64,000 bases of DNA from Minisyncoccia bacterium (GTDB lineage: Bacteria > Patescibacteriota > Minisyncoccia > Phycocordibacterales > UBA918), in the NCBI GenBank assembly GCA_041736805.1, contig JBGSSW010000004.1, positions 51,843-115,842 on the forward strand, written 5' to 3'. This document shows positions 6,101 through 42,014 of this stretch, piece by piece. Made by a program: the position numbers and the translations under genes. The notes under the pieces are model-generated. The model was not told the DNA's origin. It ran no database searches and worked only from the letters and a program-made list of their open reading frames with translations. Positions within the stretch are counted from its first letter, which is position 1; every line of letters begins with the position of its first letter.

Positions 6101-9100
6101 TATTCCTGGTACCACGACCATCGTTGATCCTCAGCTAACTCAGTCCGGTTTTCATTGGCGATTAGATAATGGCTCAGAAATAACAGCTTCATCTGCGACG
6201 GCGGGAGTTGAAAACACCAATTTAACAGCTTTGAAGATAGGAATTCCAAGGCGAGTTCGTCTCGATGTTTCGAATCAAGGTTCCACCACCTCTGTACCAG
6301 CCGCTTTTAGACTTGAGTACGGTGAAGCTGCTCCAACTTGTAACGATACAAGTTCCTGGAGTGTTGTCGGTGAACCAAGTTCAGACTGGATTATGTATGA
6401 CTCAAGTAATTTAACTGATGGTACAGACACAACTAATATTCTAGTTGCAAATGGAGGTGTAACTGACCTTGGAACGAACTTTATAGGTAGTAATGGGGGA
6501 GTCAGAGACGTAAATAATACTTTCGGAACAACCACATTAGATATAGATGATTTCGTTGAGCTAGAGTACTCAATCATGGCTTCTTCTTCGGTGGTAGAAG
6601 GTTCAACTTACTGTTTTAGAGTTTCCAGAAATGGCATTCCACTTGGTTCATATTTGGAATTTCCAAGAGTGACAATCGCGGCTGATGTGTTGGTGCAGGG
6701 TTATGGTACCCAAATAGCCACTACATCAGTTTTAGCAACTAATGTATATGCTGGAGGAGGAATCAGAATTGTAGAAAATAGTAGCAATCGTGATGTAACA
6801 AGCGTAAAGCTTTCTGAGTTTGGAACCATAGACAGTGCTACCAGTATTAAGAATCTAAAATTATTCTACGACCTTGATACCTCTGGACCGTATGACTGTG
6901 CTAGTGAATCGTACAGTGGGGGAGAAGCTCAGTACGGCTCTACAGTTAGTGATGGATTTAATGGAGTCGGCGAAACGGCTTCATTTACAGATGCAGTAAA
7001 TATATCGACAACAGAAACCCTTTGCTTATATGTGGTCTATGACGTCGGTGATTTGGCTCAAAATGGTCAGACTTTAGATATTGGGGTTAATTCTGGGTCG
7101 TCAGATGTGACTGTTACGGGAGTTGCAAGTGTCGGACCTTCAGGACTGATTAGTATATCAGGAGAAACAATTATCGAAGGGGCTATTTTATCACAAATAA
7201 ATTATCACTGGAGAAGTGACAATGGTACCCAATTAACTGCCTCGTCTGCTACCGCTGGAGTTGAAAATACGCCAATTGTGGATTTTTCTCAAAATTCTCC
7301 AATTCGTTTAAGATTTGCAGTTACAAACACCGGTCTTGCTTCTTCAGTACCAGCTCGTTTTCAACTTGAGTACTCTCCTAAAATCACTACTTGTGATATG
7401 GCCACTGTTTGGACAGATGTGAACAGTACGCTTGACGGTTGGGATATGTATAACTCGTCATATTTAACTAATGGGGAAACAACAACAAATATTGCTGTTG
7501 CTAGTGGAGGAGTTTCAAATGGTTCGGGGACATTTATCTCTAGCAATGGTGGAGTAAGGGACACTGAGTCGCTTTCCGCTACTACTTCTATTCCAGTAGG
7601 AGATTATCTTGATGTCGAATACAGTATTACTTCAACTGATCTTACTTCTTACAGTACTACTTACTGCTTTAGAGTATCTTCAAATGTTTCATCTGCCTTT
7701 GGTTCATATGTTCAATATGCTGAAATTACCACTGCCGCTAAAAGAGATTTTAAGATTCAAAGAGGCTCAGTTCAAGTGAGTGGGACTTCGGCCACAGTGG
7801 TCGCTGGAGTCGACTATACAGCTCCGGCTAGTACTTCGCTAGCCTTTGTTAGAATCACTAATTCCCATCATACAGGAGCGGGAAATTCAACAGCCTCAAC
7901 AAATCAAAACAGTGACGATGTGACAGCCTATATCTCAAATCCAGGCAACATTGCTACTAACTTTACTATTTCTCGTCCTAGTTCGGCCACGAGTAATACT
8001 CGCGTTGATTGGGAAATAATTGAATTTATCGGCAATTCTGGCACAGATAATGAAATGATTGTGCGTGGAGTTGGAACGGTTTCTTATACAACTACGTCCC
8101 TAGTGGCAACGGGTACAGTTTTATCAAACATTAGTAATAATAGTAAAGTGGTAGTTTTTGTCACTGGGGCTAGTGATAGAAATACTTCACGTAATTACTA
8201 TGCCGGATTAGTAACTTCAGCCTGGGATACTAATACAAATTCACCTGTCTTTACTCGAGGAGCCAATGGTTCAAGTATCGCTGATATAAGCTACGCAGTG
8301 GTAGAGTTTGTTGGACCAAATTGGAATGTCCAAAGAGTAGAACATACTTACATAGCATCTGGTGTAACTGAGACAGAATCAATTACAGCTGTAAATAGTC
8401 TAGCAAAAACTTTCCTTCATACACAAAAAAGAATGGGAGCCACGACTAACGTTGTTCACTATGGACATCAAGTATGGTTATCAAGTATAGGGGCTGTTTC
8501 ATTTCAGTTGGAGACTGGAGCCAGTGTAGCAGTCGGACAGACTTCAGTAGCCTGGATAATTGAAAATATCCAAGGTGGAATTGGGGCCATGAATATTCAA
8601 AGGTCTAATGGTAATACGACTGGTGGGACAGGACCGTTATCACTTTCTGTAGTGCTCTCTACCCCACTTGTAGCAGTAAATAATACTTCCATCATGGCAA
8701 ATACCAGCGGGGCTGGAGTAAATACTAGTTATCCTAGACCGATGGCGGGTTTTACTATCACTAGTACTTCCACCTATCAAATTTGGCGTAGTAATACTGG
8801 AACAACTTTAACTTACAGAGTCGAGCTAGTGGAATGGCCAGTAGCAGACTTAGCTATTCGGCAGAATTACTATCGCTTCTACGTCGATAATAATTTGCTA
8901 ACCCCTACGGACCCTTGGCCAGCCGGAGTTATTGATCTTGGTGAAAATACCTCCATTACTACTGCTGATGAACCACTTGGTAGTGGAGAACATTTAAGGA
9001 TAAGAATGAGTTTAAGAACTTCAAATGCAGCCATGCCCGCTGGTTTACAAAACTTCAAACTCCAGTATGCCCTAAGAAGTACTACTTGTTCGGCTGTTTC

Positions 9101-31734: not shown

Positions 31735-32343
31735 ATGGAAGGATCCAGACATGAACGAGCTGTAATTGTAGCAATATCATATGTAATTGGTTTTACAGCT
31801 GCTTTTTTACTGTACGCTGCACATTCTGATTTCAGTAATGAAGACAACGGTTATTTAAATGAAAGTGCAAGTTTGCCGGCTGCAGTTATTCAGTCAGACT
31901 TCAGCACAGGTAATACTGAAATTTCTAGCGCTATTGGAAAAGTTAACTACACAGATGGCAAACTTGAGTATCTAAGTAACACAGGAACTAGACTTTTGTC
32001 GTTTAACCCAGACATAACTGGTTTTTCAAAATTGAAAAATTTGGAACAACAAGGCACCCATACTAGAGACATTTTCTATTCAGTCTCAGACGACAATAAG
32101 CAAGTTTTTTTCTGCGAAAATGGCACAAGGGAGATCGACTACTGTAAGGGTTATATTTACAGCGTTGAAGAAGATTTAATTTATCCAATTACTGAAAATG
32201 GGACTTTTCCTATTTTTACTAGTGAAGAAGCTTCAGAAGCTATATGGTCTTCAGGTCAGTTATTAATTAAAAACTCCTATTCTGCAAATAAGCTCGAACC
32301 GTGGCTATTCATTACGGAGAAGTCAGCGTTTGACTTGCAATAA
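31735..32343 (+). CDS. hypothetical membrane-anchored protein
   Basis: N-terminal TM (VIVAISYVIGFTAAFLLYAA). TATAAT at 31723-31728 immediately upstream, so the transcript is possibly leaderless. Confidence 0.4.
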   Translation: MEGSRHERAVIVAISYVIGFTAAFLLYAAHSDFSNEDNGYLNESASLPAAVIQSDFSTGNTEISSAIGKVNYTDGKLEYLSNTGTRLLSFNPDITGFSKLKNLEQQGTHTRDIFYSVSDDNKQVFFCENGTREIDYCKGYIYSVEEDLIYPITENGTFPIFTSEEASEAIWSSGQLLIKNSYSANKLEPWLFITEKSAFDLQ

Positions 32344-32386
32344 ATATGTCTGTATTATAGGCAAAATTAAAGTCTTACTTTAATTT

Positions 32387-32462
32387 GGGCCAGTAGCTCA
32401 CTTGGTAGAGCGCCTCATTTGCACTGAGGAGGCAGGGAGTTCGAATCTTCTCTGGTCCACCA
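32387..32462 (+). tRNA. tRNA-Ala (anticodon UGC), 76 nt with encoded CCA
   Basis: Cloverleaf folded by hand. Acceptor GGGCCAG/CTGGTCC with the G3:U70 alanine identity pair. D-arm GCTC-ACTTGGTA-GAGC. Anticodon loop TTTGCAC. T-loop TTCGAAT. 3' CCA present. Confidence 0.85.
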
Positions 32463-32557
32463 TCTAATTTACTTGTAGCAGCTCGACTAGTTCAGTTAAT
32501 TTCAATTTTGAAAGCTTGAGCGTAAGTAAAATTTAAGTTATTATTCTTCGTCCCTTA

Positions 32558-32630
32558 GGGCCCTTAGCTCATCCGGTAGAGCGCTTCCATGGCATGGAAG
32601 AGGTGAGCGGTTCAAGTCCGCTAGGGTCCA
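32558..32630 (+). tRNA. tRNA-Ala (anticodon GGC), 73 nt, CCA not encoded
   Basis: Acceptor GGGCCCT/AGGGTCC with G3:U70. Anticodon stem CTTCC/GGAAG, loop ATGGCAT (anticodon GGC). T-arm AGCGG-TTCAAGT-CCGCT. Discriminator A. Confidence 0.8.
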
Positions 32631-32632
32631 CA
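32616..32632 (+). repeat. 17-nt direct repeat copy 1 (gtccgctagggtccaca), the 3' end of tRNA-Ala(GGC); att-core-like
   Basis: Identical 17-mer recurs at 32800-32816. Confidence 0.6.
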
Positions 32633-32657
32633 AAAAACATCCTTTTTTTGTGGACCC
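32624..32657 (+). terminator. hairpin terminator overlapping the 3' end of tRNA-Ala(GGC)
   Basis: GGGTCCACAAAAAA-catcc-TTTTTTTGTGGACCC perfect 14-bp stem. A second perfect hairpin CAAAGCAAC-attc-GTTGCTTTG follows at 32662-32683. Confidence 0.5.
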
Positions 32658-32799
32658 TAGACAAAGCAACATTCGTTGCTTTGGTCGGACTTGAACCACC
32701 GGAACGATGTGAGTTTACGAACGAGTGAGGTGTGTCCCGCGGCACCTGCTAGATTGTGAGCGAATGCAAAACAATATAGCTTGGTGACCGTCAGGATCT

Positions 32800-32816
32800 G
32801 TCCGCTAGGGTCCACA
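32800..32816 (+). repeat. 17-nt direct repeat copy 2 (gtccgctagggtccaca), a duplicated tRNA-Ala 3' end with no tRNA body upstream
   Basis: Exact copy of the tRNA 3' end, 184 bp downstream of copy 1. Upstream sequence (cgtcaggatct) does not form a T-arm. Confidence 0.6.
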
Positions 32817-32887
32817 TATTAACATACTAGATATAGTATGTTATCTCATAACTCGAACAATTCCGTTCATCAGAAAGGAGACCTGCG

Positions 32888-33262
32888 ATGGTCGCTCTCA
32901 AACGTCAGAACATCCCCGCTGGCAAGTTCCGTGTCCTCGGCTGCGACCTGTTCGATCACTCGGTCGACGTCGTCGAAGACTGCGACACCAAGGACGAGGC
33001 CTTCAAGATCGCCGACGACCACAACCGTCAGCGCACGGGGTCGATGTCCGACGTGTACTACGTCTACAACGACAAAGGCAGCTATCACCGTGGCGAGGAA
33101 GCGATCAAGAATGCCAAGGGCGAGAGACCACCGTCAGCGTCAGCCCGTAAACGCAAGCGTCGGCATTGCCGGCACGAGACCCCAGAGATAACATCAAGGG
33201 GTCTCATTTCGTTTATAATTCTACTTTTCACTCAAACTCTTTGCAAAGTAGGACATCCTTGA
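32888..33262 (+). CDS. small GC-rich gene of foreign composition, hypothetical protein; 3' end uncertain (possibly a shorter product or frameshifted)
   Basis: Strong SD (AAAGGAG) 8 nt upstream of the ATG. Pronounced GC3 codon bias in this frame (gtc, ctc, ggc, aag, ttc, gac) for the first ~80 codons, fading after ~33120. Competing overlapping frames look like GC-rich noise. Confidence 0.4.
   Translation: MVALKRQNIPAGKFRVLGCDLFDHSVDVVEDCDTKDEAFKIADDHNRQRTGSMSDVYYVYNDKGSYHRGEEAIKNAKGERPPSASARKRKRRHCRHETPEITSRGLISFIILLFTQTLCKVGHP
33176..33213 (+). terminator. hairpin (GAGACCCC...GGGGTCTC) at the end of the first GC-rich cassette
   Basis: 8-bp GC stem with a 14-nt loop. A weak T-rich tail follows. 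Confidence 0.35.
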
Positions 33263-33327
33263 TACGTCACCCAAGACTTCATTAAATATCCCCTAAATTG
33301 GTTCTGTAAATTTCCACTATAGTCCAC
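33242..33327 (+). repeat. 86-bp direct repeat DR1, containing a promoter-like TTGATA-17-TTAAAT and ending in a degenerate tRNA-Ala 3'-end-like ctatagtccac
   Basis: About 92% identical to DR2 at 33816-33901. Each copy sits just after a cassette terminator. Confidence 0.6.
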
Positions 33328-33398
33328 GAGTACAGAAAGAGCGCCTTTGTTGTTCGTGGACTATAAGCAAGCAAACTACCTTGCTTGCTTGAGGCCTT

Positions 33399-33427
33399 TT
33401 CGTGTAGATTGACAAGTCACACTATTC
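33399..33427 (+). promoter_or_regulatory. putative sigma-70 promoter TTGACA-17-TAGTAT upstream of the 33478 gene
   Basis: Consensus -35 TTGACA at 33399-33404, 17-nt spacer, -10 TAGTAT at 33422-33427. SD AGGAG precedes the ATG at 33478. Confidence 0.4.
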
Positions 33428-33477
33428 ATGCTAGTATTTTGAATGAAATTCTTGTTATTCCACAACCAGGAGATGTC

Positions 33478-33747
33478 ATGGCGATTTTGAAATGTCGTTA
33501 TTGCAAAGAAGGTGTGCTTACGGGCGCGCGTCATCACTGCAAGCAAATGCAACTTGCAAAACAACCATCGGCTGTTGTCGATGAGAGTGAAGGAAGCATC
33601 TTTCTCTCATTCGCGGTCGCAGCGGCAACAGACAATTGGGCAATTGGGACGCTTGTTGGAGGCAATCTCATTGGTGGAATTGTCGGCGACGCAGTAGTAG
33701 GAAACAACGACTCATGTAACGACGGTGACTCTGGTAGCGACGACTGA
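33478..33747 (+). CDS. small protein (89 aa) with N-terminal Cys/His cluster (CRYC...HHC), glycine-zipper hydrophobic segment and acidic tail; hypothetical (bacteriocin- or membrane-peptide-like)
   Basis: ATG preceded by AGGAG. Sequence MAILKCRYCKEGVLTGARHHCKQ...FLSFAVAAATDNWAIGTLVGGNLIGGIVGDAVVGNNDSCNDGDSGSDD. The ORF track's 33385 start is an upstream extension lacking an SD. Confidence 0.5.
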   Translation: MAILKCRYCKEGVLTGARHHCKQMQLAKQPSAVVDESEGSIFLSFAVAAATDNWAIGTLVGGNLIGGIVGDAVVGNNDSCNDGDSGSDD

Positions 33748-33754
33748 GCGCAAC

Positions 33755-33805
33755 TAGCCCCACGAGGAAGTCCCACGACTTCACAACTCGTGGGGCTTCT
33801 TCTTT
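33755..33805 (+). terminator. rho-independent terminator after the 33478 gene
   Basis: GCCCCACGAG...CTCGTGGGGC 10-bp stem enclosing an inner GAAGTC/GACTTC stem, followed by TTCTTCTTTTC. Confidence 0.6.
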
Positions 33806-33815
33806 TCTAAAATTA

Positions 33816-33901
33816 ACTGCAAAGTAGGACAAGATTGATACGTCACCCAAAACTTCATTAAATACCCCCTACATTGGTTCTGTAAATTTCCCCTATAGTC
33901 C
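33816..33901 (+). repeat. 86-bp direct repeat DR2 (copy of DR1)
   Basis: tgcaaagtaggacaAGATtgatacgtcacccaaAacttcattaaataCcccctaCattggttctgtaaatttccCctatagtccac. About 7 mismatches to DR1. Confidence 0.6.
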
Positions 33902-34022
33902 ACAAACAAATTAAAATCAATAGAGCACAAGACCAAGTTTGTGAAATACTGCCAATGGACTTGTAAAATATAGATAAAGGTATATATTTAGACTAAATAT
34001 GAAAAGGAGACGTAGAGCAACC

Positions 34023-34142
34023 ATGTTTATAATGATAGCTATCATTGCTGCTGTTTGCTTTATTCTCAGGTCTGATTACTTCAGCCACATCACTTCGAAT
34101 CAGATTATCAATGATTCTAGAGCAAGTTTGCTTGCTGAATAA
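34023..34142 (+). CDS. tiny hydrophobic peptide (39 aa) downstream of DR2; hypothetical
   Basis: ATG with AAGGAG 12 nt upstream. MFIMIAIIAAVCFILRSDYFSHITSNQIINDSRASLLAE. Below the ORF-track length cut-off. Converges on the HAD gene stop 18 bp away. Confidence 0.3.
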   Translation: MFIMIAIIAAVCFILRSDYFSHITSNQIINDSRASLLAE

Positions 34143-34160
34143 AGAGCCAGGTCTTTAAAA

Positions 34161-34856
34161 CTATTGTTTAAACATTTTAACTAACTTTCGGTAAGTGTCT
34201 AAATAGTCTACCACTGGTACCGTTTCAATTACGCCAATCACAGCTTCATCATTACCTCCCGGGTATAGTCCATCTCCAAAATAAATACAATTATTTTTAT
34301 CCCATTTCATTAGATCAATGAGCTTTTGAACATTGGTTCCTTTATGTCTGTCTTTATGGATGTAATCAAAACTTGTAGAACCTCCGATTTTAACTATTAA
34401 CTCATCAGATTCAAATGGTATTGTCTTAATTAAATTCTCACGGATCCTTCTGTCCGGGTCGTAAGTGTTTTTTATTTCGTGCGGAGCAGTATTTCCAATT
34501 GGGCTAAAAGTTATCTGTGCACCTCTATCCTCAATCGGATTCCATTCTTGGTTTATATCATGTTCAATTAGATTTGATATTTTTTTAATGTGATTCAAAA
34601 TTTCTAGTCGATGATTATTGTCTAAAGGAATATTCCACAATTCTTTATCATCCAAATCAGTTGCATGATTTCCATTTTGGCCAAGTGTATATGAACGCAA
34701 ATAATTACTTTGTGCTCCAATTTTCACCACTTCTTGTCCAGAAACTATAACAATGTCCTGAGAAAAGCTATTTAGTAGATCAAACATGTCGTCAAGGATT
34801 AGTTGCCTGGCCGGAGCTATCGTCTGATCCATATCAAAAAAGAGATGTTTATACAT
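34161..34856 (-). CDS. HAD-IIB hydrolase, phosphomannomutase (PMM)-like
   Basis: DxDxT motif FFDMDQTI. Mid-region IVSGQEVVKI and C-terminal IYFGDGLYPGGNDEAV resemble the eukaryotic-type PMM family (FFGDKTxxGGNDxE). Confidence 0.55.
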   Translation of the reverse strand: MYKHLFFDMDQTIAPARQLILDDMFDLLNSFSQDIVIVSGQEVVKIGAQSNYLRSYTLGQNGNHATDLDDKELWNIPLDNNHRLEILNHIKKISNLIEHDINQEWNPIEDRGAQITFSPIGNTAPHEIKNTYDPDRRIRENLIKTIPFESDELIVKIGGSTSFDYIHKDRHKGTNVQKLIDLMKWDKNNCIYFGDGLYPGGNDEAVIGVIETVPVVDYLDTYRKLVKMFKQ

Positions 34857-41251: not shown

Positions 41252-41265
41252 AGCCCCAAAATACA

Positions 41266-41294
41266 TTGACTTTTTAGTCATTTCGTGCTATACT
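41266..41294 (+). promoter_or_regulatory. putative sigma-70 promoter TTGACT-17-TATACT driving the GC-rich lipoprotein gene pair
   Basis: -35 at 41266-41271, -10 at 41289-41294, ATG at 41330. Confidence 0.4.
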
Positions 41295-41329
41295 CTAAAT
41301 AGAAGGTTCTTCACATTGAGGAATCAAAA

Positions 41330-41722
41330 ATGGAGTACGGTATGTACACGAAGTATTTTTTCACCCTGGTTCTCGTTGCCCTTTTTGCTGGTTGTGCCAG
41401 CAACGAAAGCTACCATTCATCGCGTCGCAATGCGGTGCCGGTGGATGAACTCGGATCGCGCGGGGCCACCTTTGCCGGCCAAGCCCAGCAGTTCCATCAG
41501 AACAACATGGCCATGAGTGTGTGCCCCAACGGCACAATCACGAAAAAAGGCGGTGGCTCGATGAACGCCGGAGCTGGTGACCAGAGTGGCCGAGTGACCT
41601 ACAGTGTCACCTCAGCCAGTCAGTTCAAAGAAGAATGCGACTACGGTGAACAAAACCAGGCACCAAAAACGCCGGCTCGTAACGTTGGAGAAAACCCGAC
41701 CAAGAAGGAGAAGCGGCAATGA
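41330..41722 (+). CDS. small lipoprotein (lipobox LFAGC), GC-rich foreign-looking gene
   Basis: MEYGMYTKYFFTLVLVALFAGCASN... signal peptide plus lipobox. GC3-biased codons. Competing overlapping frames rejected. Confidence 0.5.
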   Translation: MEYGMYTKYFFTLVLVALFAGCASNESYHSSRRNAVPVDELGSRGATFAGQAQQFHQNNMAMSVCPNGTITKKGGGSMNAGAGDQSGRVTYSVTSASQFKEECDYGEQNQAPKTPARNVGENPTKKEKRQ

Positions 41723-41973
41723 GGCTTCTTTGCGCAGCTCTCGCCATTGCAATGTCGGGTTGCGCCAGTACCAACTATTACGTCGAAAGCGACATTCCAG
41801 GCCTAGCCGGAAAAATTGCTGAGGGAATGCAATCAATCCCTCAGCACTCCTGTCAGCCTGGAGAAAAAGTTTTGATGCTCTCAAGAGCAGATTCCAACTG
41901 CACGAAAGCTGGTTGTCGGGAGAAATTCCAGAAGAAAATTTCCTGCCAAAAAGCAACCCCAGAGCGCCGCTAA
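41719..41973 (+). CDS. small lipoprotein (lipobox MSGC), GC-rich, translationally coupled to the previous gene (ATGA overlap)
   Basis: MRLLCAALAIAMSGCASTNYYVES... Start overlaps the upstream stop. Confidence 0.5.
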   Translation: MRLLCAALAIAMSGCASTNYYVESDIPGLAGKIAEGMQSIPQHSCQPGEKVLMLSRADSNCTKAGCREKFQKKISCQKATPERR

Positions 41974-41996
41974 CATGTTAGCTGGCGCTCTTTTTT
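41961..41996 (+). terminator. strong rho-independent terminator (bidirectional; the minus-strand mltG also ends here)
   Basis: AGAGCGCCGCTAACA...TGTTAGCTGGCGCTCT, a ~14-bp stem with one bulge, followed by TTTTTT. Confidence 0.7.
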
Positions 41997-42014
41997 ATAT
42001 TCAATTTTATAAGA

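Follow-up and report, generated by a model that had tools for sequence, protein, structure and literature searches.

What kind of element stacks small, self-contained gene units directly behind a tRNA gene in a patescibacterial genome? The question is raised by positions 32632-33903 of a 64-kb stretch of a Minisyncoccia bacterium (contig JBGSSW010000004.1); the whole stretch of 64,000 nucleotides that was analysed is referred to here as the window. Bacteria of the candidate phyla radiation (CPR), or Patescibacteria, have tiny genomes and are uncultured or epibiotic, and to our knowledge almost nothing is known about how they acquire genes. The window has a GC content of 38.4% and carries housekeeping genes including uvrB, uvrA, uvrC, ddl, and an RND pump, and at the island locus its closest DNA relatives are metagenome-assembled genomes of Patescibacteria/Paceibacterota. 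The reading that we prefer, to which we assign a probability of roughly 0.58, is that 32632-33903 is an array of three small modules, acquired horizontally and not autonomous, which were inserted through site-specific recombination by an enzyme acting in trans. The borders of its modules are defined to the nucleotide, the modules are reshuffled between genomes and linked exclusively to tRNA 3' ends, their composition is foreign, and they contain no recombinase gene.

The island spans about 1.3 kb and consists of three modules stacked at the 3' end of tRNA-Ala(GGC), each of which (modules 0, 1, and 2) terminates in GTCCAC, the last bases of the tRNA. Its features and those of its surroundings are as follows, with related loci given by our L numbers.

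32558..32631, + strand: tRNA-Ala(GGC), called by ARAGORN and the Rfam tRNA model; its last bases, ..GTCCGCTAGGGTCCAC(A), are the attachment core.
32621..32660, + strand: perfect 17-nt/6-nt/17-nt palindrome, seen as inverted repeat I1 and in the minimum-free-energy fold; the tRNA 3' end pairs with an inverted copy at the left end of module 0.
32632..32816, + strand: module 0, gene-less and structured (type-B); repeats D2, I7, and I8, covariance model match, fold z-score -6.
32817..33327, + strand: module 1, the gene-1 cassette; 32855-33216 is 83% DNA-identical to L002.
33125..33126, + strand: +2 (AG) frameshift in gene 1, from protein alignment, three-frame translation, and DNA comparison with L057 and L002.
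33231..33327, + strand: type-A arm copy 1, a direct repeat that ends in the core CTATAGTCCAC.
33328..33903, + strand: module 2, the gene-2 cassette; an equivalent unit, 90% identical, is present in L010, L011, and L012 with three different left neighbours.
33807..33903, + strand: type-A arm copy 2, a direct repeat that ends in the core CTATAGTCCAC and forms the right border of the island.
33904..34160, + strand: probable native flank with "gene 3"; GC 26-37%, with neither repeat nor core to its right.
32387..32462, + strand: tRNA-Ala(UGC), found by ARAGORN and the Rfam tRNA model (62.4 bits); the upstream neighbour, itself unoccupied in the window genome.

The left border was set at 32632 because the last 17 nt of the tRNA recur exactly, as GTCCGCTAGGGTCCACA, at 32800-32816, 184 nt beyond the original. 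An earlier sequence-only reading of this DNA had started the island at 32838 and thereby missed the gene-less, structured module 0 (184 bp). Each of the two gene cassettes that follow is a complete transcription unit composed of a promoter, a Shine-Dalgarno (SD) sequence, one small open reading frame (ORF), and a terminator, and each is then closed by a type-A arm. Gene 1 is preceded by the SD sequence AAGGAG (32875-32880) and followed by a terminator hairpin at 33176-33205; the promoter of its module is decayed, with TTAACA in place of the TTGACA found in relatives, and a palindrome lies at 32820-32843. Module 2 begins with a hairpin containing an inverted core (33354-33365) and a second hairpin at ~33364-33391, corresponding to the first two hairpins of the type-B/X layout described below. 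Its promoter, TTGACA-17-TAGTAT at 33409-33437 with an upstream TG, is the best promoter match of the region. It is followed by gene 2 (33478-33747; 89 aa, with a glycine zipper and the SD sequence CAGGAG) and by a terminator at 33756-33797 (inverted repeat I13). The region 33904-34160 is probably native flank and gene 3 is not counted as a cassette, since its composition is host-like (36.8% GC, with a leader of 26%) and there is no arm or repeat on its right. The gene 3 ORF runs from 33999 or 34023 to 34142, has the SD sequence AAGGAG at 34003-34008, and encodes one transmembrane segment.

Many of these elements had been named in the sequence-only reading: its three AGGAG-type SD sequences, the GC-rich hairpins after genes 1 and 2, and the cassette-two promoter were all recovered at the positions given above. 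Its count of three gene cassettes was reduced to two, and its description of the cargo as peptides gave way to proteins of 86 and 89 aa. The two direct repeats that it had described as 86 bp long and ~92% identical are real, but they are 97 nt long and 88% identical without gaps, and the second pair of coordinates was 2 nt out of register. The promoter-like TTGATA-17-TTAAAT noted within the repeats is present in both of them but falls below the threshold of the promoter scan.

The type-A arm links the cassettes to the tRNA. Its end, CTATAGTCCAC, matches the tRNA end, CTAGGGTCCAC, at 9/11 positions, and the shared pattern CTAKRGTCCAC is found at 5 places in the window, where 0.06 would be expected; all of them lie at or near tRNA and repeat ends, which bears out the resemblance noted in the sequence-only reading. 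Other motifs of the arm are confined within the window to the two arm sites (0.0-0.1 expected by chance). Ten type-A copies in 8 loci are colinear as far as GTCCAC and then enter at least 7 different right continuations. Because the tRNA-like end is kept in 10/10 of these copies, it is not the product of decay in place. The last ~30 nt of the arm correspond to a diverged 3' part of tRNA-Ala, with a 14/17-nt match to the tRNA of L017, and thus the arm end resembles a tRNA-Ala variant as the identity block of a phage-type attachment site (attP) would. On neither strand does the arm form a stable fold (z -0.8 to +2.2); being conserved in sequence yet unfolded, it fits protein-binding arms better.

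A 22-nt pattern from the arm was scanned against 185,579 genomes (one per GTDB species) and the JGI metagenomes. Matches were obtained in three Patescibacteria genomes and three contigs, and all 6 loci are tRNA-Ala(GGC) islands, so the repeat is not the genome-wide dispersed sequence that would have undone the sequence-only reading. In 5/6 loci a complete 1.66-kb cassette begins immediately behind tRNA-Ala(GGC) and ends with the arm. This cassette carries genes for what reads from the sequence as a CsoR-like regulator, for a membrane protein, and for a DUF305 protein, and its function is probably related to copper or another metal. It is 96% identical between L015 and L017/L018, where the tRNA-Ala genes are only 89% identical, and 99.8% identical between L017 and L019, where the sequence after the cassette differs. 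Near-identical cassettes beside diverged tRNAs, and with different followers, therefore indicate horizontal spread. The copy in L018 is truncated and 100% identical to that of L017. Copies of the 1.66-kb cassette (L015 2227-3892) were also observed in L016, L017, L019, L020, and, in part, L010, at 94-99.8% identity. The tRNA-Ala(GGC) of the window is 100% identical to that of L015.

Cassette 2 shows the reshuffling most directly. The entire unit, from GAATACAG... through the arm, is conserved on L010, L011, and L012. In L011 it sits directly on a genuine tRNA-Ala(GGC), with the join ..CCGCTAGGGTCCAC|GAATACAG (also written ..GGGTCCAC|GAATACAG); in L010 it is joined to the arm of the DUF305 cassette, in L012 to an unrelated third sequence ending in ..ACACCAC, and in the window to the arm of cassette 1. 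Each time the left join falls right after ..CCAC. The region is accordingly not a fixed part of the core genome in relatives. Gene 2 itself has a single cluster of relatives, at 90% identity, on the three short metagenome contigs. Its product combines a CxxC...HHC motif at the N-terminus with a glycine-zipper segment (GTLVGGNLIGGIVGDAVVG) and an acidic tail, and that it might be a membrane-active or bacteriocin-like peptide is only a guess from these motifs.

The foreign composition is most marked in gene 1, which has the highest 300-bp GC in the window. Over 32888-33190 it has 59.7% GC and a GC content at third codon positions (GC3) of 77%, against a background GC3 of 29 +/- 5% with a maximum of 44% (27 window ORFs). 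Gene 2 is intermediate (50% GC, GC3 44%). The GC-rich island that had been proposed from the sequence thus persists on computation for gene 1, less strongly for gene 2, and not for the host-like gene 3. The 364-bp gene-1 block, comprising SD sequence, ORF, and terminator, has an 83% identical counterpart in a genome of 43% GC and an 84% identical one in a genome of 57% GC, and it keeps 57-61% GC in hosts of 38%, 43%, and 57% GC. Gene 1 belongs to a conserved family of ~86 aa with 27 close matches and 342 cluster representatives at E<=1e-3. The product is an 86-aa protein with an alpha/beta prediction; an AlphaFold2 model of the family (mean predicted local confidence, pLDDT, 77) had no fold match in the PDB below E 0.1. 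Neither gene 1 nor gene 2 has a Pfam match, and PHROG returned only matches at E about 0.01-0.03; exact-protein look-ups for gene 1 and a HAD gene found nothing on record.

In the window, gene 1 is interrupted by the frameshift listed above, which swaps its last 9 residues. The C-terminus of the family, ...GETTVSVSP*, is found in the other frame with its stop at 33148-33150, and the ORF as it stands (32888-33262) reads through its own terminator into the repeat. The frameshift reflects either recent pseudogenisation or an assembly error.

Gene-1 cassettes also occur at other tRNAs. In L057, which has uvrA-uvrC-ddl synteny in common with the window, the cassette lies after tRNA-Ala(UGC); another cassette with one gene comes next, along with an imperfect 22-nt repeat of the tRNA end. 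In L023, L002, and L059 it lies after tRNA-Asn(GUU), and in L006 downstream of smpB-tmRNA. In the window, L023, L002, and L059, the promoter box (TTGACA; TTAACA in the window) begins 0-5 nt after a 15-17-nt copy of the local tRNA end, and the Ala and Asn copies that precede the cassette are unrelated in sequence. A distant homologue of gene 1 (MDPELLKDIPQGTFRIIHC...SDHNRGR...YFVFDDKG) was observed at L015 4216-4433, directly after a type-B element in a tRNA-Ala(GGC) island; a 55-nt stretch ahead of it matches window 32744-32798 with 89% identity.

These arrangements suggest how the array could have been built. From the arrangement of the sequence we infer integration itself, a circular intermediate, a crossover within GTCCAC, and the type of recombinase and its location. 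The joined ends of a cassette would carry the arm, GTCCAC, and the left end, together an attP-like site in which the arm would serve as the P-arm. The partner of this site would be a GTCCAC core, either the one in the tRNA end or the one that closes a resident module on its right, with the recombinase supplied in trans from elsewhere. Recombination would most likely be conservative and site-specific, so that the tRNA would stay intact and the core would be duplicated at the far end; repeated insertion would build up the tandem array, and recombination or slippage between cores could remove modules. A crossover within or 3' of GTCCAC predicts that the tRNA keeps CTAGGGTCCAC (CTAGGG-TCCAC) and the arm keeps CTATAGTCCAC (CTATAG-TCCAC), as is the case. 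The exact borders, junctions at which 4-8 nt are shared, and an arm that is conserved but unstructured fit the mechanism too. Tandem accumulation of very small integrase-less cassettes at a tRNA attachment site, the central proposal of the sequence-only reading, is thus supported. On this basis the locus offers a concrete route of gene acquisition in which sub-kilobase, self-expressed, recombinase-less cassettes, common to genomes of 38-57% GC, are stacked and reshuffled at tRNA 3' ends, and the 97-nt arm with its GTCCAC core is a candidate recombination site for finding the missing recombinase.

Tandem insertion with partial tRNAs as separators is already known, so what the sequence-only reading had considered a possibly undescribed system is better seen as a miniature variant, although literature searches turned up no earlier account of tRNA cassette arrays in CPR bacteria. 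The tycheposons of Prochlorococcus insert in tandem at tRNAs, including tRNA-Ala(GGC), and at tmRNA, where partial tRNAs set the insertions apart, older elements are displaced outward by newer ones, and niche genes make up the cargo (bioRxiv 10.1101/2020.12.28.424599). They measure 10-20 kb and carry their own tyrosine or serine recombinase together with replication genes (bioRxiv 10.1101/2020.12.28.424599). Stacking at specific tRNA/tmRNA 3' ends, with full and partial tRNA copies, is seen here as well, and both systems reside in streamlined genomes with few classical mobile elements. However, the island units are 0.18-1.7 kb long, carry no recombinase or replication gene, belong to a different host phylum, and possess a conserved 97-nt arm and a folded non-coding module. 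Cis-mobilizable elements (CIMEs) are integrase-less elements flanked by attachment sites that accumulate in tandem at a tRNA 3' end and rely on the recombinase of another element; they are decayed integrative and conjugative elements (ICEs) or integrative and mobilizable elements (IMEs) of several kb, mobilised together with an incoming ICE (PMC5704250). The island modules resemble them in being bounded by GTCCAC cores and lacking a recombinase, but look purpose-built (one promoter, gene, and terminator plus arm) and recur intact, and neither a parent ICE or IME nor a conjugation gene was seen in any fetched locus. An identity as a tycheposon, prophage, or ICE was rejected, since neither the islands nor the window ORFs scanned contain a recombinase, replication, or transfer gene, and there is no match in the phage, plasmid, or viral collections. 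The locus is a miniature form of the tRNA-targeted integrative elements and not a wholly new principle; it extends the tRNA-island principle of Prochlorococcus to another streamlined lineage at a far smaller unit size.

Movement by a recombinase in trans also has a parallel on plasmids. The pdif/Xer modules (IMEX) of Acinetobacter plasmids are small, lack a recombinase, are bounded by short sites, and are thought to be moved by a housekeeping recombinase in trans. By analogy, the island units may be compared with them as small recombinase-less modules between short recombination sites. The pdif modules differ in having 28-bp XerC/XerD sites in alternating orientation on plasmids, whereas here direct copies of a tRNA end lie on the chromosome, and no dif-like 11-6-11 site was identified at the island. 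We did not retain a lox-like interpretation of the 17-6-17 palindrome (32621-32660), as other genomes have the arms 24-80 nt apart with hairpins between them.

Module 0 belongs to a second kind of element, type-B, which is ~190 nt long, non-coding, and always placed 3' of a tRNA-Ala gene or of a cassette core; in L015, L016, L019, L020, and L017 it also occurs after the arm. In the window it carries the 3' strand of the tRNA acceptor as an inverted copy (32650-32660), then a hairpin (32662-32683), then a copy of the T-arm, again inverted (32686-32697), and domains 2-3 (32691-32801), besides the 17-nt direct copy given above. An element with an equivalent layout, termed X, is found at tRNA-Asn(GUU) and consists of a terminator-like hairpin, an inverted acceptor copy, a hairpin, an inverted T-arm copy, a body, and a direct copy. 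The copies of both elements are as follows.

Window 32632-32816: type-B, by covariation and fold.
L015 3887-4092: type-B, by covariation and fold.
L016 4250-4444 and 591-863 (- strand): type-B, by covariation and fold.
L017 2065-2262: type-B, by covariation and fold.
L019 1531-1739: type-B, by covariation and fold.
L020 812-1020 (- strand): type-B, by covariation and fold.
L023 7766-7939: X, with copies matching the local tRNA-Asn.
L002 26-213, 999-1172, and 1668-1731: X, with copies matching the local tRNA-Asn.
L059 2529-2709: X, with copies matching the local tRNA-Asn.

Some type-B copies bear both inverted and direct copies of the 3' half of the resident tRNA, and the inverted and direct copies co-vary with that tRNA across Ala(GGC), an Ala(GGC) variant, Ala(UGC), and three tRNA-Asn genes. 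The RNAalifold consensus of four type-B sequences has 78 pairs, 35 of them with compensatory double changes, and several G-U pairs are valid on the tRNA strand only, which makes the fold strand-specific. Single-sequence fold z-scores range from -11 to -14, compared with -6 for module 0 of the window. A covariance model built from domains 2-3 of four type-B copies from genomes other than the window matched window 32691-32801 (25.1 bits, E 4e-4) and the L017 copy (E 0.03), and, behind tRNA-Ala(UGC), revealed further copies in L016 (120.8 bits) and L015. Among ten model-aligned matches, 93.5% of cells pair, against 32-48% with slid partners, and 29/37 pairs change on both sides, in an alignment that is model-fitted and leans towards structure. 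The order in L016 is tRNA-Ala(UGC), type-B, a 17-nt direct copy, and a second type-B, and in L002 it is the X element, not the type-A arm, that lies between successive gene cassettes. A degenerate copy of the tRNA end was also observed beyond the type-B element of L017.

Searches against Rfam returned only tRNA at E<=10 for window 32300-34300, nothing at E<=1 for L015, L016, L017, and L019 except for a single match at chance level (E 0.92; 25.6 bits, the threshold being 60 bits), and nothing at E<=0.1 over the X elements of L002, L023, L057, and L059. Type-B, at ~190 nt, is therefore uncatalogued; it covaries strongly, its stems follow the neighbouring tRNA, and it deserves a study of its own. 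Two leads on its nature were set aside. The 33 viral matches of a type-B 15-mer were due to chance, BLAST having matched the word alone. A retroelement primer-binding site was considered since the direct copy ends in ..CCA in L002 and L023 though the visible tRNA-Asn gene of L023 lacks CCA; it was dropped because the copies in the window and L059 end like the gene (..ACA and ..GCA) and no reverse transcriptase is present.

Several observations weigh against insertion by site-specific recombination in trans. No recombinase was identified anywhere: integrase and transposase domains were absent from the island ORFs, their neighbours, and the 28 scanned window ORFs (no match to Phage_integrase), which agrees with the integrase-less character claimed at the outset, and no recombinase was found in the related islands L002, L006, L010-L023, L057, and L059. 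Neither an excised circle nor, within the same population, an empty site was observed. Nor did a vector carrying the arm or gene 1 come to light among phages, plasmids, and viral contigs: a BLASTN search with the island returned nothing relevant from phage and plasmid records, tblastn with gene 1 returned no match from these records, and viral contigs yielded no relative when scanned with gene-1 peptide patterns, an X(Asn) pattern, and two patterns from the arm. The 6 bp common at junctions (4 in L012) are the minimum for the overlap of a tyrosine recombinase. The gene-1 unit lies 0-5 nt after unrelated cores, namely ..GGGTCCACA in the window, ..CCGGAGCCA in L023 and L002, and ..CGCGGAGCA in L059, and its right arms differ, being type A in the window and the unrelated X element in L002; a single integrase with a single core therefore cannot explain it. 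Finally, a plain integrase model assigns no function to the type-B and X modules, which carry the end of the resident tRNA both inverted and directly repeated.

The tRNA-matched copies, the unrelated cores, and the different right arms thus fit the integrase model poorly and keep a structure- or RNA-guided capture alive. In such a mechanism, the folded ~190-nt type-B/X element, and not the 97-nt arm, would be the functional attachment site; an enzyme would read the folded single-stranded DNA or RNA, capture of cassettes would take place where the direct copy ends, and a switch to another tRNA would require no more than changed inverted and direct copies. There is precedent for recognition of this kind, as integron attC and the CTX-phage attP are recognised as folded single-stranded DNA. 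The strong covariation and the strand-specific G-U pairs speak for it, as do the co-variation of the copies with the tRNA at Ala and Asn genes alike, and the X element that separates cassettes in L002. An enzyme reading structure or RNA at the direct-copy end would further explain the nucleotide-precise placement of the gene-1 cassette, 0-5 nt after the direct copy, at unrelated tRNAs. However, no candidate enzyme is present, the csoR and gene-1 cassettes lack a left-hand hairpin, and the conserved but unfolded arm (z about 0) is better explained as a protein-binding arm. Type-B may just as well be a tRNA-trailer RNA that has nothing to do with mobility, or the cassette family's smallest member, and the model-fitted alignment is biased towards structure. 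We consider this mechanism unlikely, while ranking it first among the alternatives. Its generalisation, that Patescibacteria have a tRNA-anchored, integron-like capture system with a folded ~190-nt platform (type-B at Ala, X at Asn) that takes up self-expressed single-gene cassettes, is offered as a tentative conjecture, one that we would not expect to hold. If type-B does serve as the site of capture, it would represent a programmable attachment site of a new kind.

A known family that combines terminal hairpins with mobilisation in trans is that of the palindrome-associated transposable elements (PATEs) of the IS200/IS605 group, which are mobilised by the Y1 HUH transposase TnpA, have subterminal hairpins at both ends, and insert 3' of a tetra- or pentanucleotide. 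The island resembles them in part, in lacking an internal transposase, in an apparent insertion 3' of a short fixed sequence (..CCAC here) with no classical target duplication, in the left-border hairpins of type-B and cassette 2, and in the strand-specific fold. It differs in that the gene-1 and csoR cassettes have no left hairpin, no TnpA/TnpB was seen (TnpA was not found in the window ORFs scanned), and direct copies of 15-17 nt matched to a tRNA are foreign to the PATE family.

We doubt, somewhat more firmly, that the modules are wreckage, that is, larger integrative elements (tycheposon-, prophage-, or IME-like) that integrated serially and then lost their integrase and most genes, leaving the repeats as remnant attR sites and the small modules immobile by themselves. 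Serial integration followed by decay is a documented origin of tandem arrays and of CIMEs (PMC5704250; bioRxiv 10.1101/2020.12.28.424599), and the frameshift and mutated -35 box of gene 1, together with the degenerate tRNA-end copy in L017, could be signs of such decay. No fragment of an integrase was detected in the ~15 islands inspected, however, and compact units recur with promoter, SD sequence, terminator, and arm intact, in different orders and at different tRNAs. Independent decay would not give identical unit borders, which counts against this origin.

Homologous or short-homology recombination after DNA uptake, with the tRNA and the arms serving as portable homology in place of a dedicated site-specific system, appears improbable. 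Patescibacteria are generally thought to take up DNA, the 97-nt arms (85-100% identity) and the conserved tRNA do offer homology, and the gene-1 unit occurs with different arms. Yet the junctions share 4-8 nt only, which at the left junctions is too short for RecA-dependent exchange, the borders are exact in all copies, and one and the same cassette is present at tRNAs of unrelated sequence.

The layout finally recalls integrons. Integron attC sites are imperfect folding palindromes with R'' RYYYAAC and R' GTTRRRY boxes and a crossover in R', and integron cassettes are usually promoterless and expressed from Pc. Like the Vibrio cholerae repeat (VCR) arrays and the clusters of attC sites lacking an integrase (CALINs), the island has single small ORFs, mostly of unknown function, and ~100-nt repeats alike within the array; cassette order varies in relatives, and a fixed primary site anchors the array (attI there, a tRNA end here). 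Its borders, ..TAGTCCAC|, however, lack GTTRRRY, its anchor is a tRNA gene, cassette 2 has its own promoter, the TTGACA of gene 1 abuts the core in L002, L023, and L059, and each cassette has its own terminator. We give next to no credence to a CALIN, or to a generic intergenic repeat beside a tRNA by chance, and rejected the integron reading, despite a one-small-ORF plus ~100-nt repeat layout resembling VCR arrays, because the arm is not an imperfect palindrome, does not fold on either strand (z about 0), and has no GTTRRRY/RYYYAAC boxes, the cassettes have their own promoters, no intI is present in the island, its neighbours, or the 28 scanned window ORFs, and the arm is never dispersed.

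A number of minor observations concern the tRNAs and the wider window. In L059 the anticodon loop of tRNA-Asn(GUU) (2160-2528) is interrupted by a group I intron (RF00028, 55.9 bits, 2183-2481), and ARAGORN misses this tRNA. In L023 a 5' partial tRNA-Asn copy (TCCGGCGTAGCTCAGCTGGTAGAG) lies at 7520-7545, 146 nt upstream of the complete gene. Logan short-read contigs from the same population break inside tRNA-Ala(UGC) (end of L001, window 32422), and another such contig, L013, starts at window 32787, exactly 30 nt before the border between modules 0 and 1 at 32817. These breaks fit branching of a k=31 graph at a module border, i.e. population heterogeneity, but are ambiguous and were not counted as evidence. 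A second GC-rich patch, with up to 57% GC in 300 bp, is located at 41262-42000 and is not beside a tRNA. Its ORF at 41330-41722, which had no match in a Pfam search, is lipoprotein-like, with an LFAGC lipobox, and has a TTGACT-17-TATACT promoter to itself; another start of lipoprotein-like type is found at 41721. This patch is possibly another acquired insert.

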